DNA from: Candidatus Binatota bacterium | Lineage (GTDB): Bacteria > Desulfobacterota > Binatia > UBA1149 > CAITLU01 | Assembly: GCA_024276575.1 (NCBI GenBank) | Contig: JAJRWY010000312.1 | Location: forward strand, 1,161-65,160 | Length of the DNA: 64,000 nt | Direction of reading: 5' to 3' | Part shown: positions 31,398-36,164 of the stretch, piece by piece | Layout: every line of letters starts with the position of its first letter | Position numbering within the stretch: the stretch's first letter is position 1 | The notes under the pieces: generated by a model | Told to the model about the DNA's origin: nothing | Databases searched by the model: none | What the model saw: only the letters and a program-made list of their open reading frames with translations | Translations under genes and position numbers: made by a program

Positions 31398-31703
31398 ATG
31401 TGGCCTTTCGACAATAGCTTCTATGAGGAAATATCGGCTCGGTTCGAAACTCTGCTCAAGGACGGTGAGGACGCCGGAAATACCAATGATCTGTCGGCTT
31501 TGCTTGCTCCGGTGGATCCTTTCAACCGTTCACCCTTGTTTACACCGGTCGTGAAAGCTCTGGGCGTCGCTGCGTTGGTAGCAATGACCGGGCTTGCCGC
31601 AGCCGGTTTAGTCGTGGCCTTCGTTGCTTTCCTCGGTCTTTACTTCTTGCTTACCGAAGTATTCGGTTACGAGCTTTCTCTGGCACCGCTGCAACCGATG
31701 TAG
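31398..31703 (+). CDS. Hypothetical small membrane protein
   Basis: Begins 5 nt after the previous gene. The acidic N-terminal half is followed by two hydrophobic helices (ALGVAALVAMTGLAAAGLVVAFVAFLGLYFLL). No homology support. Confidence 0.4.
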   Translation: MWPFDNSFYEEISARFETLLKDGEDAGNTNDLSALLAPVDPFNRSPLFTPVVKALGVAALVAMTGLAAAGLVVAFVAFLGLYFLLTEVFGYELSLAPLQPM

Positions 31704-32332
31704 ATTGCGTCTTGCCGTACGGCGAGACCGAGTATTAGAGCACAGGCGACGGCTGCCGCATCGCATGCCGCCACCGCGTGCCGCCACTGGCGCAGGTGCT
31801 TGTCGTAGCCACCGGCCTGCCGGCTGCGGTCTGAATAACGCGCGGGGAAATCGAGACCGGATGGTCCGTGATCTTGCGTTCGACGGTGGCTTGGCAAGGC
31901 GCCGTAGTTACGACAATCGCTAAACAGATCAGGAAGCGGTGCCTGTGGATGCACTCCGCAAACGAAACCGCAACCACCGCCATCCGGCTCAAAAGTGTAC
32001 CATACAATCGGTACCGAAGTTTTGCGGGCATGTTCGATTTGGTTCAGATCCGAATGCTCGACTCCCGCTACTATGTAGCAGGCGATAGAAGTGGATGTTT
32101 GTGTAGCTTTGCGACCTCGTCCCCGGAGGCTTTCAATGCCTGGACCATCGCTGCGCGAGGATACGCTGACCCCCGCTGCTCTCAAGTAAAGGGATGCTTG
32201 TTCCACGCCGCGAGGGTGCCCGAGCAGTACCACTGTCGCCGCCAGTAACTTTCCCTGGCCTTCCGCACCGATGCCGGGGATGATGATCTGTCGCGCATAG
32301 CGTTCAATGCTCTCATCATCGAGAGTAGCCAT
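31667..32332 (-). CDS. ThiF/MoeB-family (E1-like) protein with degenerate nucleotide-binding site; possibly a pseudo-enzyme or decaying gene
   Basis: The N-terminus IERYARQIIIPGIGAEGQGKLLAATVVLLGHPRGVEQASLYLRAAGV aligns with ThiF MRYSRQILL..I..DGQQKLL...VLIIGLGGLG..AALYLAGAGV, but GxGxxG is replaced by GHPRGV and the DxxxxSNLQRQ segment is missing. Later segments (VPIVWYTFEPDGGGCGFV, LPDLFSDC) still follow the ThiF pattern. Confidence 0.5.
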   Translation of the reverse strand: MATLDDESIERYARQIIIPGIGAEGQGKLLAATVVLLGHPRGVEQASLYLRAAGVSVSSRSDGPGIESLRGRGRKATQTSTSIACYIVAGVEHSDLNQIEHARKTSVPIVWYTFEPDGGGCGFVCGVHPQAPLPDLFSDCRNYGALPSHRRTQDHGPSGLDFPARYSDRSRQAGGYDKHLRQWRHAVAACDAAAVACALILGLAVRQDAIYIGCSGARESS

Positions 32333-32359: not shown

Positions 32360-32599
32360 TCATTCTATGACGTTCTTCTCTATCGGCTCGACAGTGACGC
32401 CTTGCTCGGCGATCCATCGTACGGCCCGGTCAATCTCGTCTTGCTCACCTTCGAGTTCGAGAGCCATGATGCCCACATGCTCAGAAATCGAAGCACCGCG
32501 TATATTGGTGACCACGCGGAACTTGTGTCCGACGTGGTAAACGATCGGCTCCTTTATCTTCTCTTGGCTGTAGGTCAGGTAGAAACGTTGAAGTGTCAT
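32360..32599 (-). CDS. Free-standing NIL-domain protein
   Basis: The 79-aa sequence (IVYHVGHKFRVVTNIRGASISEHVGIMALELEGEQDEIDRAVRWIAEQGVTVEPI) resembles the C-terminal NIL domain of MetN. ATGA overlap with the cysM-like stop. Confidence 0.7.
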   Translation of the reverse strand: MTLQRFYLTYSQEKIKEPIVYHVGHKFRVVTNIRGASISEHVGIMALELEGEQDEIDRAVRWIAEQGVTVEPIEKNVIE

Positions 32600-33579
32600 T
32601 GGTTCTCCTCCGCGGCGGCGAGTTCATGGCGGTCGCGCCAGCCGGTCCACAGATTCGTAGATAAGTAGCGGTCGCCAAAATCGGGTAGCACTACCACCAC
32701 GCACCCGGATTGCAACTCCGCAGCCACTTCCAGTGCTGCGACTACCGCGGCACCGGAGGACTGTCCGACCAGCAGACCTTCTTTGGCGGCCAACTCGTAA
32801 ACCATCTCGTAAGCGGCATCGGTAGCCACACCCACCTTGCGGTCGAAGCCGGATTCGTCGTAAATACCCGGCACGATCGAGCTGCCCATGTGCTTCAAGC
32901 CTTCTATCCCGTGGAAGGCGTCGTCGGGCTCCACGGCTATTATTTCGACCTCAGGCTTGCGCGATCTCAAGTAGCGGCCGCAGCCCATTACGGTTCCGCT
33001 GGTACCGATCGTGGCGAGAAAGTGAGAGACGCGGCCGGCAGTTTGCTCCCAGATCTCGGGTCCTGTGGTCAGGAAGTGGGCCTCCGGATTGGCCGGGTTG
33101 TAGTACTGGTCGGGTTTGAAGTACGCGTCGGGATCGGCGTCGAACATCTTTTTGGCCAAGACGATGGAGCCGTCGGACCCTTCCATCGGATCGGACTCGA
33201 CTATTTCGGCGCCGTAAGCCGCAATCACCCGCAATCGTTCGCGTGAGGCGTTGGCGGGTATCACTAATTTTACCGGATATCCCAGCGCAGCGCCGATCAT
33301 CGCCAGCGCGATGCCGGTGTTGCCGGAAGTAGAATCGAGAATGGTTTTGCCGGGGCGTAAGTGTCCGTCTTCCAATCCACGACGCACCATGTTCCAGGCC
33401 GGGCGGTCTTTGACCGAACCGCCGGGGTTGAAGCCCTCGACTTTGGCGTACACTTCTACACCGCCGGCCAAGTGCGGGGTTACACCTCGCAGTTGGAGCA
33501 ACGGTGTGTCGCCGATCAAGTCGAGTATGCCTGTGGCCTCCGCCTCATTAAGGGTCGGCTGTTGGCGAGTCCGGTGCAC
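32596..33579 (-). CDS. cysM: CysM/CysK-family PLP-dependent sulfhydrylase (cysteine synthase B-like)
   Basis: IGDTPLLQL, PLP lysine in NPGGSVKDRPA, STSGNTGIALA, and GTSGTVMG. GTG 33579 is the only usable start upstream of the conserved ILDLIGDTPL. Confidence 0.85.
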   Translation of the reverse strand: MHRTRQQPTLNEAEATGILDLIGDTPLLQLRGVTPHLAGGVEVYAKVEGFNPGGSVKDRPAWNMVRRGLEDGHLRPGKTILDSTSGNTGIALAMIGAALGYPVKLVIPANASRERLRVIAAYGAEIVESDPMEGSDGSIVLAKKMFDADPDAYFKPDQYYNPANPEAHFLTTGPEIWEQTAGRVSHFLATIGTSGTVMGCGRYLRSRKPEVEIIAVEPDDAFHGIEGLKHMGSSIVPGIYDESGFDRKVGVATDAAYEMVYELAAKEGLLVGQSSGAAVVAALEVAAELQSGCVVVVLPDFGDRYLSTNLWTGWRDRHELAAAEENQ

Positions 33580-33854
33580 GCGCCGCCGGCGATAGCGGGA
33601 ACGATGGAGATTTCGTCGCCGTCTTTGACGGCGGACTCCAGGTCATCAAGAAAGCGAATGTCATCGCCGTTCACGTAAACATTTACGAAACGCCGTACTG
33701 AACCGTCGCGTTCGCAGATGCGCTCCTTGAGGCCTGGATGGGCTGCCTCGACGCTGTCGAGAACCGCGGCCACGGTCGAGCCTTCTGCGTCGACGGCTTC
33801 GTTGCCGCCTGTAAACTTTCTCAGGGGTGTGGGGATTCTTACCCGGACTGCCAT
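33516..33854 (-). CDS. MoaD/ThiS-family sulfur-carrier protein (CysO/MetO-like) with 21-codon extension beyond Gly-Gly
   Basis: ATG 33854 is preceded by AGGAGGAAC. The 91-aa beta-grasp-like sequence ends ...DGDEISIVPAIAGG, which is typical carrier length, and then the ORF continues ACTGLANSRPLMRRRPQAYST to TGA 33516. Confidence 0.8.
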   Translation of the reverse strand: MAVRVRIPTPLRKFTGGNEAVDAEGSTVAAVLDSVEAAHPGLKERICERDGSVRRFVNVYVNGDDIRFLDDLESAVKDGDEISIVPAIAGGACTGLANSRPLMRRRPQAYST

Positions 33855-33891: not shown

Positions 33892-35184
33892 TCACGAACC
33901 GGTGGCCGGAGAAGCAATCGTGGAAGCCTGATCGCCGCCGGCTGTCTTGCCGGCTTCAAGACGCTCGTAAAGACGGTCGAATTCGTCGAGACGTGCTGCG
34001 ATATCGTGGGTGACCGGAACCGAATCACGAACCGCCTCGAGGGTCTTGTAGCCGTTGCCGGTAATAGAGATGACGATCGACTCATCTCGGGGTATGCGGC
34101 CTTGCTCTATGAGTTTCTTGGTAACCGCCACCGTGGTGCCCCCGGCCGGCTCGGTAAACACACCTTCCGTACGCGCCAGTAGTTTGATTGCTTCCACTAT
34201 TTCTTCGTCGCTAGCTGATTCACCCCATCCTCCGGAATCCCTGACCGCTCCGAGAACGTAATAGCCGTCGGCCGGGTTGCCGATCGCGATCGACTTGGCG
34301 ATGGTATGAGGCTTTACCGGTTCGATAAGGTCGGTTCCCCGGTGAAGGGCGTTGACGACCGGAGCGCAACCGGCGGCTTGCGCGGAGTATATCTTGAATC
34401 CGCTCTGCTCGACCAAGCCTACCCGCTGCAGCTCTTCAAAGGACTTGGCGACTTTGGGCAAGATGGTGCCGCCGGCGGTAGGAACGACGATGTGTTGGGG
34501 GAGCTTCCAGCCGAGTTGTTCGGCCACTTCGAATCCGTAAGTTTTGGCTCCTTCGGTGTAAAAAGGCCGCAGGTTGATGTTTGCGAAAGCCCAGCCGTAC
34601 TTGTCCGCGATCTCGGTGCACAGGCGGTTAACGTCGTCATAATTGCCGGAGATCGCGACCGGGACCGGGTTGTATATGGCCGATCCCACCACCTTGCCTT
34701 GTTCGAGGTTGTCGGGGATGAAGATGAAGCACCGCAGGCCGGCGCGTGCTGCATGGGCGGAAACGGAATTGGCTAGGTTGCCGGTAGAGGCGCATGCGAC
34801 GGTTTCGAAGCCGAACTCGACCGCTTTGGTCAGCGCGACCGAGACTACGCGGTCCTTGTAGGAGAAGGTCGGGTGGTTGACCGAATCGTCTTTTACGTAG
34901 AGTTCCGAGACGCCGAGCACTTCTGCCAAGCGATCGGCTTTGAGCAAGGGAGTAAAACCTGAATACAGGCCGATACGCGGCTCGGACTCCACCGGAAGCA
35001 ACTCGCGATATCTCCACAGGTTGGGTGGCCTCGCTTCAATGGTCTTGCGATCGACCGCAGCCGATATCTTGTCATAGTCGTATTCTACTTCGAGGGGGCC
35101 AAAGCAGTATTCACAGACGTGGTAGGGCTTGAGTTCGTAAGCCTCGCCACATTCACGGCACTTGAGGCCTTTTACAAAAGACAT
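33892..35184 (-). CDS. Threonine synthase-family PLP enzyme with N-terminal zinc ribbon (candidate carrier-dependent homocysteine synthase, MetM-like)
   Basis: ATG 35184 is preceded by AAGGAGA. Zn ribbon CRECG...CEYC, PLP lysine in HPTFSYKDR, and CASTGN. The functional split between ThrC and MetM cannot be decided from sequence here. Confidence 0.85.
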   Translation of the reverse strand: MSFVKGLKCRECGEAYELKPYHVCEYCFGPLEVEYDYDKISAAVDRKTIEARPPNLWRYRELLPVESEPRIGLYSGFTPLLKADRLAEVLGVSELYVKDDSVNHPTFSYKDRVVSVALTKAVEFGFETVACASTGNLANSVSAHAARAGLRCFIFIPDNLEQGKVVGSAIYNPVPVAISGNYDDVNRLCTEIADKYGWAFANINLRPFYTEGAKTYGFEVAEQLGWKLPQHIVVPTAGGTILPKVAKSFEELQRVGLVEQSGFKIYSAQAAGCAPVVNALHRGTDLIEPVKPHTIAKSIAIGNPADGYYVLGAVRDSGGWGESASDEEIVEAIKLLARTEGVFTEPAGGTTVAVTKKLIEQGRIPRDESIVISITGNGYKTLEAVRDSVPVTHDIAARLDEFDRLYERLEAGKTAGGDQASTIASPATGS

Positions 35185-35198
35185 GGTAGTTATCTCCT

Positions 35199-35957
35199 TC
35201 AGCGGTCGATGCCGGGCGCTGCAGCGGCGGGCTCGTAACCGCGGGGTCGTGAACGGGTTTCCCCCGAGCGGGAGCATCGCGGGCAAGCGGGATCCCTGGG
35301 GAAATATACATGGCGCCAACGGCACCCTGACAATTCATAGATATTCATGCGGCCGGGACACAGGCTTTTGTCTCCACCAAGGTAACGAAGCGCGTCTTGC
35401 GCTTGTGCGGTTCCCACCAAGCCGGCCACTGGTGCGAGAATGCCCATAGCTGAACAGCCGCCGTCGGCTTCCTGCGGGTGGTCGTCGGGGAAAGCGCATG
35501 CGAGGCAGGCCGACACGCCCGGCACCACGGTCATCCATTGGCCGGTGGTTCTGATCACACCGCCGTAACAGAAAGCGGTGCCGGTCGAGACTGCAACGGC
35601 GTTTATCATGAATTTCGTGGCCGGGTCGTCACAAGCGTCGATCACGAAATCATGAGAGGAAACGAGGCTCTCGGCGTTGCCGGTGTTCAACGTATCTTCG
35701 ATGGGACGAATTTCAGTGGTAACAGGGCCGCCGGCGGATGCGGCTAGAGCCTTACGCGCGGCCTCGGCCTTGGGTGCTCCGACGTCGCTGTCGCCGAACA
35801 AGACCTGCCGCTGCAGGTTCGAAAGCTCGATGCGGTCGGGGTCGATAATCGTGAGTTTGGCAACTCCGGCGCCCACGAGCATGCGCGCGGCAGCGCAACC
35901 GAGGGCGCCGACGCCCACCAACAGAACCGAATCTTTTGTTTGCTGCTGCAAGTACAA
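35199..35957 (-). CDS. ThiF/MoeB-type adenylyltransferase (E1-like sulfur-carrier activating enzyme)
   Basis: VLLVGVGALGCAAARML, IIDPDRIELSNLQRQVLF, IDACDD, and zinc cysteines CLAC...CPRC. The N-terminus is very short (only 15 aa before the glycine loop) and the start is TTG. Confidence 0.85.
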   Translation of the reverse strand: MYLQQQTKDSVLLVGVGALGCAAARMLVGAGVAKLTIIDPDRIELSNLQRQVLFGDSDVGAPKAEAARKALAASAGGPVTTEIRPIEDTLNTGNAESLVSSHDFVIDACDDPATKFMINAVAVSTGTAFCYGGVIRTTGQWMTVVPGVSACLACAFPDDHPQEADGGCSAMGILAPVAGLVGTAQAQDALRYLGGDKSLCPGRMNIYELSGCRWRHVYFPRDPACPRCSRSGETRSRPRGYEPAAAAPGIDR

Positions 35958-36013: not shown

Positions 36014-36164
36014 TCCTTATCTTTCACCCTCTTTGCATTTGCGTGAACTCGATTACGCGCTCACCGCAACGCTAAGGTGCGGGACTTAGCACCTGCCGCC
36101 CGCTTGCGCAGGCCGGTTGCTGTGGCTTCACAGGGCCCATTCCCTCCGCCACTCTGAATAAGGA
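36014..36164 (-). promoter_or_regulatory. SAM-I (S-box) riboswitch aptamer
   Basis: Minus strand: P1 TCCTTAT...ATAAGGA. The conserved core reads TTCAGAGTGGCGGAGGGAATGGGCCCTGTGAAGCCACAGCAACC, then GGTGCTAAGTCC, then GAAAGATAAGGA. It closely matches the S-box consensus (CTTATCAAGAG.GGTGGAGGGACTGGCCC.ATGAA.CC.GCAACC ... GGTGC.AATTCC ... AGATAAG). Confidence 0.9.

Follow-up and report, generated by a model that had tools for sequence, protein, structure and literature searches.

An extended sulfur carrier overlapping cysM in a Candidatus Binatia-like operon: a probable read-through tail in a carrier family that routinely runs beyond Gly-Gly

The window analysed here is a stretch of DNA of 64 kb. 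The operon of interest lies on its minus strand, as do all of the features described below, and its closest synteny is with Candidatus Binatia genomes. It comprises, in order, a SAM riboswitch, a ThiF-type E1 enzyme, a ThrC-like enzyme, a sulfur carrier, a CysM-like enzyme, a NIL protein and a reduced E1-like protein. The riboswitch (RF00162; 36014..36164) forms the operon head. It covers the full model (positions 1-108) and scores 75.8 bits, the gathering score being 44.4; a SAM riboswitch is also present upstream of the homologous operon in five of the seven relatives tested. The E1 gene (35199..35957) encodes a ThiF/MoeB-type adenylyltransferase of 252 aa (Pfam ThiF, 204 bits) which has no rhodanese domain. 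The protein matches the NCBIfam models for ThiF, MoeB and UbaA, all under their equivalog cut-offs. With the MoeZ model it reaches 118 bits against a cut-off of 647; it is not a MoeZ-type enzyme, in which the adenylyltransferase is fused to a rhodanese. The ThrC-like gene (33892..35187) encodes a PLP enzyme with an N-terminal zinc ribbon (PALP, 216 bits), and it scores 312.6 bits with the 'threonine synthase' model PRK08197 (cut-off 303). A ThrC-like gene is found directly 5' of the carrier in most related loci which retain upstream sequence. The enzyme is a probable MetM-like homocysteine synthase.

The remaining genes lie 3' of the carrier. The CysM-like PLP enzyme (32596..33579 from its homology-supported GTG start; PALP, 235 bits) belongs clearly to the CysK/CysM subfamily; with the NCBIfam cysM model TIGR01138 it scores 361.5 bits, the equivalog cut-off being 394.2. 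It is followed by a stand-alone NIL-domain protein of 79 aa (32360..32599; NIL, 55 bits). The last gene (31667..32332) encodes a reduced E1-like protein in which the RYARQ motif survives and the ATP-binding Gly loop is gone; its match to MoeB/MoeZ is confined to residues 3-56. This 221-aa ORF (32332-31667) was considered as a hidden peptidase or as the casualty of a frameshift. Both ideas were rejected, as it aligns end to end as a conserved reduced E1-like protein, and homologues of about 160 aa are conserved at the same operon position. Each of the neighbouring genes matches its relatives in a single frame along its length, so neither frameshifts nor low sequence quality are indicated in this region.

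The carrier gene is a ThiS-family ORF of 112 codons, running from an ATG at 33854 to 33516 and encoding 112 aa. An AGGAGG ribosome-binding site lies 5' of the ATG. The carrier domain proper comprises residues 1-91 (33582..33854). Pfam ThiS (PF02597) matches residues 5-91 at 68.5 bits (threshold 22.5) and reaches its final profile position; the NCBIfam models SAMP1 (69.4 bits, cut-off 60) and moaD_arch (55.5 bits, cut-off 49.5) both stop at residue 91. Residues 83-91, ...SIVPAIAGG, are the same as the family motif, and the Gly-Gly (residues 90-91) is encoded by GGC GGC at 33587-33582. The closest relative (locus L001, protein P0001) is identical at 84 of these 91 residues (92%). At the nucleotide level the two carrier bodies are 77% identical and differ mostly at synonymous positions. 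The resulting pN/pS of 0.065 indicates strong purifying selection on a selected gene. The carrier probably belongs to a MetO/CysO-like clade of ThiS-family sulfur carriers.

No stop codon follows the Gly-Gly. The carrier frame goes on as ACTGLANSRPLMRRRPQAYST until a TGA at 33518-33516, and the primary translation product does not have Gly-Gly at its C-terminus, there being 21 residues beyond it. The tail and its stop codon together occupy 33516..33581. The cysM GTG at 33579 begins at the third base of the Ala codon which follows the Gly-Gly, so that 64 nt (33516..33579) are shared by the carrier tail and the N-terminal leader of CysM. The sequence-only reading of this locus had described the position of the Gly-Gly, the run of 21 further codons and the overlap of the two frames in this way, and the coordinates hold.

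The dual coding depends on where cysM starts. The public gene model of the source contig gives the carrier as 112 aa and starts cysM at a TTG (33518..33520), which overlaps the new TGA of the carrier as TTGA and yields a protein of 307 aa. This 307-aa form is present in the NCBI-derived collection; the 327-aa form which starts at the GTG is absent from it. Upstream of the conserved core of CysM, GTG 33579 is the sole canonical start codon in frame. Relatives conserve the motif [VI]-[LF]-D-L-[IV]-G-N-T-P, of which the residues I-L-D fall just upstream of the Leu encoded by the TTG, and their CysM proteins have leaders of 17-25 residues. The GTG start is therefore better supported than the TTG, which makes it probable that the 64 nt are truly read in two frames. 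It should be noted that a coincidence such as the TTGA overlap is to be expected: the offset between the two frames was set by the original GTGA overlap, and any later NTGA in the carrier frame will be in frame with cysM.

Extensions beyond the Gly-Gly proved to be common. The carrier was compared with its best 120 protein homologues and with 163 related loci from genomes and metagenomes. Among the best 120 homologues, 115 (96%) have residues beyond the Gly-Gly: exactly one residue in 97 of them and between 2 and 38 in 18, while five have none. At the related loci, residues follow in 123 of 163 (75%). Here the tail has one residue at 75 loci, two at 27, 3-7 at 16 and 10-26 at five; the 40 loci with no tail are, in the genome scan, mostly from Verrucomicrobiota. 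Where a single residue is added, its identity is nearly unrestricted (R, A, N, D, L, C, V, F, H, K, I, S, Y, T and Q all occur). Stop/start overlap was considered as the source of the extra residue and discarded as a general explanation, since one-residue tails occur equally often at loci with a spacer of 30-40 nt before the next gene. Two of the homologues (P0002 and P0017) are natural head-to-tail di-carrier fusions in which a Gly-Gly is internal, so a long sequence after the Gly-Gly does occur in the carrier family. The sequence-only reading had taken the Gly-Gly to be the normal end of such proteins; alignment with the orthologues contradicts this, and the expectation does not hold for this carrier subfamily.

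Long tails are rare. Those of 10-38 residues are found in about 3% of family members; they are mutually unrelated and none is conserved. A tail similar to that of the window was sought in the 120 proteins and the 163 loci, and none was found. A conserved functional tail was rejected on this count (0 of 120 proteins or 163 loci have the same tail). In the metagenome scan, tblastn gave apparent matches extending as far as residues 104-112, which are alignments passing through stop codons and not shared tails. The proposal that the tail is unselected is thus sustained, similar conserved tails in orthologues having been looked for as the sign of the opposite. From these comparisons the 21 residues appear to be an unselected by-product.

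The junction itself points to how the tail arose. In L001 the carrier ends GGA GGC GCG TGA, and the TGA overlaps the cysM GTG as GTGA. The same stop/start overlap is seen in L005 and L009, where it comes after the tails ASA and AE. The window has GGC GGC GCG TGC. The critical base is 33576, which is C in the window (codon TGC; context GGCGCGTGC) and A in the closest relative (codon TGA, the carrier stop; GGCGCGTGA). From this homology of position we infer that the stop lost in the window was a TGA after Gly-Gly-Ala. The earlier suggestion of a lost stop is supported by the TGA of L001 against the TGC of the window, with the correction that the stop stood after Gly-Gly-Ala and not directly after the Gly-Gly. 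The length of the tail, 21 codons, calls for no special explanation once the stop was lost: with a G+C content of 60%, chance read-through would average about 31 codons, and a run of 20 codons would be free of stops with a probability of about 0.5. An event of the same type has recurred independently in a metagenome pair, L092 and L093, which share 98% identity over 181 nt. Where L092 has TCA TAG, L093 has TCA CAG; the loss of the stop in L093 gives a 12-aa tail which runs over the cysM ATG.

The relative from which the ancestral TGA is read has 77% nucleotide identity, and it is the nearest available in place of a near-identical sister sequence. An independent assembly of the same population was sought and none was found, the best genome match being 77% identical and the best metagenome match 76%.

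Residues beyond the Gly-Gly raise the question of a peptidase. A motif scan of the 64-kb window found no JAMM/Prok-JAB gene. A JAB HMM was built from five Pfam-verified Prok-JAB proteins of related loci and run against every ORF of 50 aa or more in the six frames of the window; it detected no JAB domain, the best E-value being about 1. This agrees with the sequence-only reading, which had seen no JAMM peptidase here. Its absence in cis is no anomaly and is instead the norm: with the same HMM, only five of the 163 related loci show a JAB gene at 10 kb or less from the carrier, and these are the same five which supplied the model. A JAMM gene in trans would thus be the rule in this carrier family, including lineages whose carriers always have tails. 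The related proposal, that the carrier is a pro-protein whose peptidase is encoded elsewhere, fits the data; it does not set this gene apart, as it describes almost the whole subfamily.

A JAB profile search for a Mec homologue in Binatia was uninformative, the top 120 matches being mostly from Poribacteria. Among these matches are JAB-NIL fusion proteins of 237 aa, encoded in Poribacteria immediately 3' of a 92-aa ThiS carrier. Between the NIL half of the fusions and the stand-alone NIL protein of the window, sequence identity is 43% (E = 2e-21). Fusions of JAB and NIL which adjoin a carrier tie the NIL protein of the operon to the JAMM step.

The reading which we prefer, at a probability of roughly 0.65, is that the extension is a harmless read-through tail which would be trimmed by a Mec-like JAMM hydrolase encoded outside the operon. 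The norm of the lineage would be a carrier ending Gly-Gly-Ala-TGA, with the TGA overlapping the GTG of the downstream cysM as GTGA. A change of the A of this TGA to C would have let translation run for 21 codons to the next TGA, passing through the CysM leader, which is poorly conserved, in its +1 frame. The pathway would already need a Mec-like JAMM hydrolase that cuts off anything attached beyond the last glycine of the carrier. Its usual substrates would be the carrier-cysteine or carrier-homocysteine adduct and the one-residue cap: the PLP enzyme is expected to leave the new amino acid on the last glycine, from which the JAMM enzyme would remove it. In chemical terms, a single encoded residue on the last glycine makes the carrier a substrate of the same type as the adduct, which would leave that residue unconstrained and drift of the stop codon tolerated. 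Mec+ is known to hydrolyse the CysO-cysteine adduct (PMC3227635), and JAMM enzymes are reported to cleave linear fusions irrespective of what comes after the Gly (PMC8832034). After cleavage, the ThiF E1 would adenylate the free Gly-Gly and the carrier would become thiocarboxylated. The ThrC-like (MetM-like) enzyme and CysM could then use the thiocarboxylated carrier to make homocysteine and cysteine under the control of the SAM riboswitch. We infer the cleavage of the tail, the presence of a JAMM gene elsewhere in the genome and the specificities of the enzymes. The tail is most likely a neutral or nearly neutral read-through product.

Known systems resemble this operon in different respects. 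CysO of Mycobacterium tuberculosis ends at Gly-Gly and mec adjoins cysO; unlike it, the window's carrier is extended, has no JAMM gene nearby and is followed by a CysM which scores under the NCBIfam cysM equivalog cut-off. The likeness to CysO/CysM/Mec+ (PMC3227635) lies in a ThiS-family carrier followed by a CysM-like PLP enzyme, and in chemistry which implies a carrier-amino-acid adduct for JAMM hydrolysis. The MetO/MetM/Mec/MoeZ system of Streptomyces albulus (Hasebe et al. 2024) offers a second parallel. According to two accounts (10.1101/2024.10.14.618325; PMC12172450), MetM is homologous to ThrC and frequently annotated in error as threonine synthase; from O-phosphohomoserine and the thiocarboxylate of the carrier it makes homocysteine. 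Maturation of MetO is reported to require Mec (10.1101/2024.10.14.618325), and S. albulus metM is reported to have a SAM riboswitch (PMC12172450). The window is like this system in that a ThrC homologue adjoins a ThiS-family carrier with a SAM riboswitch upstream; in the proposed reading the carrier, like MetO, would be matured by a Mec-type hydrolase. Unlike the S. albulus MetO/MetM system, the window has a short ThiF E1 without rhodanese, has CysM, NIL and reduced E1-like proteins in the operon, lacks a Mec gene in 64 kb and carries the 21-residue tail.

Carriers made with extensions are also known. HcyS-Ala/HcyD of Wolinella is a system with a pro-carrier that has a C-terminal extension. 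QbsE ends in Gly-Gly-Cys-Phe and is processed by QbsD; CxnE has a 10-residue tail, SEAARAEESR, after its Gly-Gly, and its removal by CxnF has been proposed (PMC5925218). As in QbsE, CxnE and HcyS, where the extensions have up to about ten residues, the residues beyond the Gly-Gly of the window's carrier would need to be removed before adenylation. The differences are that those systems have their JAMM gene in the cluster, and that the tail in the window, which runs into the next gene, appears to be peculiar to this gene and not a trait of its lineage. JAMM enzymes are also documented to cleave linear Ubl fusions, namely DRJAMM on MoaD-MoaE, and HvJAMM1 and PfJAMM1 on SAMP fusions (PMC8832034). 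These cases are alike in that a beta-grasp carrier can be released from long C-terminal attachments by a cut after the last Gly; their substrates are conserved fusions to functional partners, whereas the tail described here is apparently accidental.

Other explanations were weighed against a trimmed read-through tail. The simplest is an error of sequencing or assembly, in which the true minus-strand base at 33576 is A, the carrier ends Gly-Gly-Ala-TGA with no tail, and the two genes overlap by only 4 nt. A single base does restore the exact junction of L001, and the source is apparently a contig of a draft assembly; we nevertheless regard this as unlikely, since substitution errors are rare in consensus assemblies, the neighbouring genes align in a single frame without disruption, and stop-to-sense change is independently seen in L092/L093 in a family of which some 3% have long tails. 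The change could also be a real mutation with a tail that is removed inefficiently, leaving a carrier which is impaired or becoming a pseudogene, with other routes to cysteine and homocysteine in use. In favour of this, no JAMM gene lies in the window. Moreover, several relatives have a GGAGG Shine-Dalgarno-like sequence at the Gly-Gly codons, which the GGCGGC of the window lacks; the moved stop could disturb translational coupling to the cysM GTG, and together with the missing GGAGG it may make the base change costly, in that a shifted stop and a weak Shine-Dalgarno-like GGCGGC might lower the expression of cysM. Decay of the carrier is quite improbable all the same, because the carrier domain, E1, ThrC-like enzyme and CysM, along with the NIL protein and the riboswitch, are each conserved and undamaged, the pN/pS is that of a gene under constraint, and relatives with tails of 1-38 residues keep the operon, likewise with no JAMM in cis.

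Function has also been considered for the extension. It might be a regulatory pro-peptide, might serve termination-reinitiation at the TTGA (33520-33516) to give a shorter CysM, or might reflect a programmed frameshift that makes a carrier-CysM fusion. The new stop does create a TTGA with an in-frame TTG of cysM, at which the public gene model starts, and carrier fusions cleaved at an internal Gly-Gly exist (PMC8832034), as does an internal Gly-Gly in P0002 and P0017. Against this, no relative has a similar tail, the TTGA follows from the frame offset, a TTG start would drop the I-L-D residues which relatives conserve, and inspection of the sequence around 33590-33570 reveals no canonical slippery heptamer; a functional extension is accordingly very hard to credit. 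It is just as far-fetched that the shifted stop is adaptive, with the long tail as a stronger 'cap' which holds the carrier inactive until JAMM is available, or with leaderless CysM made via the TTGA in a fixed ratio to the carrier.

A trimmed read-through tail therefore remains the preferred reading, and the tail is apparently a tolerated accident which says nothing new on mechanism. The case is of a kind already known: the carrier family is routinely made as a pro-protein and its JAMM gene would routinely lie elsewhere. The gene in the window is a rare long-tailed variant which probably results from the loss of a stop codon overlapping the start of the next gene. Its context is more informative than its tail, with an operon headed by a SAM riboswitch in which one carrier is paired with both MetM-like and CysM-like enzymes, a link between NIL and JAMM, and a cysM start which is probably mis-called. 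Overlaps of this sort can mislead gene callers into a truncated cysM start. In annotating the carrier family, Gly-Gly should not be taken as the expected end, and extended forms should not be flagged as broken. For pathway reconstruction of the GapMind type, the one-residue cap and the rarity of JAMM genes in cis mean that the Mec step must be sought genome-wide.

The public gene model of the contig takes a TTG at window 33518-33520 (minus strand) as the start of the cysM-like gene, which gives a protein of 307 aa beginning MIGDTPL. This start cuts about 20 residues off CysM, some of which relatives conserve. The extended carrier ORF has probably forced the gene model into a wrong start here. 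In several related loci (the junctions of L001, L005, L008 and L009) the Gly-Gly of the carrier is encoded by GGAGGN or GGGGGA, which resembles a Shine-Dalgarno sequence and lies 5-9 nt 5' of the overlapping cysM start. The corresponding codons of the window are GGCGGC (33582-33593 region, minus strand), a weak match.

A comparable long-tailed carrier is found in a pair of related contigs which are 98% identical (L092, 2340-2520; L093, 5716-5896). The carrier stop is TAG in L092 and CAG in L093, where a 12-residue tail results and overlaps the cysM ATG. This pair is the same phenomenon as the window carrier, arisen independently. Carriers also occur as head-to-tail ThiS-ThiS tandems (P0002, P0004 and P0018, 182 aa; P0017, 188 aa), a layout resembling polyubiquitin. 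The internal AIAGG of these proteins runs straight into the second domain; tandem carriers would require cleavage after the first Gly-Gly.

Among 163 related loci, a Prok-JAB gene is present within 10 kb of the carrier in only five: L048 (10209-10763), L054 (4706-5209), L035 (11590-12126), L052 (10615-11022) and L065 (1911-2318). These genes comprise two subtypes; one is short (about 135 aa), and the other (about 145-167 aa) has an inserted NIQN..H..DP..PR..R..Y segment. JAB is also found fused to NIL in proteins of 237 aa (L164, 6001-6714; database proteins P0184-P0186, P0197, P0216 and others). In Poribacteria, the JAB-NIL gene lies immediately 3' of the gene for a ThiS carrier of 92 aa, and the operon encodes Rrf2, PALP, PAPS reductase, ThiS and JAB-NIL. 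The stand-alone NIL protein of the window operon (32360-32599, minus strand) shares 43% identity with the fusions over their C-terminal half. Because it resembles the NIL half of fusions which adjoin carriers, the NIL domain is suggested to be a partner of a JAMM hydrolase, perhaps with a role in methionine or cysteine sensing.

The operon encodes two E1-related proteins, neither of which is fused to a rhodanese domain in the window. The catalytic ThiF (35199-35957, minus strand) begins at about profile position 20, without the usual N-terminal RYxRQ segment; this segment is essentially the sole part kept in the downstream reduced E1-like ORF. The latter (31667-32332, minus strand) is conserved. 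The N-terminal RYARQ motif and a C-terminal helix are retained, whereas the GxGxxG ATP loop is gone; the protein is possibly a non-catalytic subunit which binds the carrier. Versions in L002, L004, L005, L089 and L091 are about 160 aa; compared with these, the window copy has two insertions.

A SAM riboswitch (RF00162, 75.8 bits; 36014-36164, minus strand) is located at the head of the E1/ThrC-like/carrier/CysM/NIL operon, and the same riboswitch precedes the homologous operon in L002, L004, L005, L010 and L012. The MetM-like and CysM-like enzymes both appear to be served by one carrier under SAM control.
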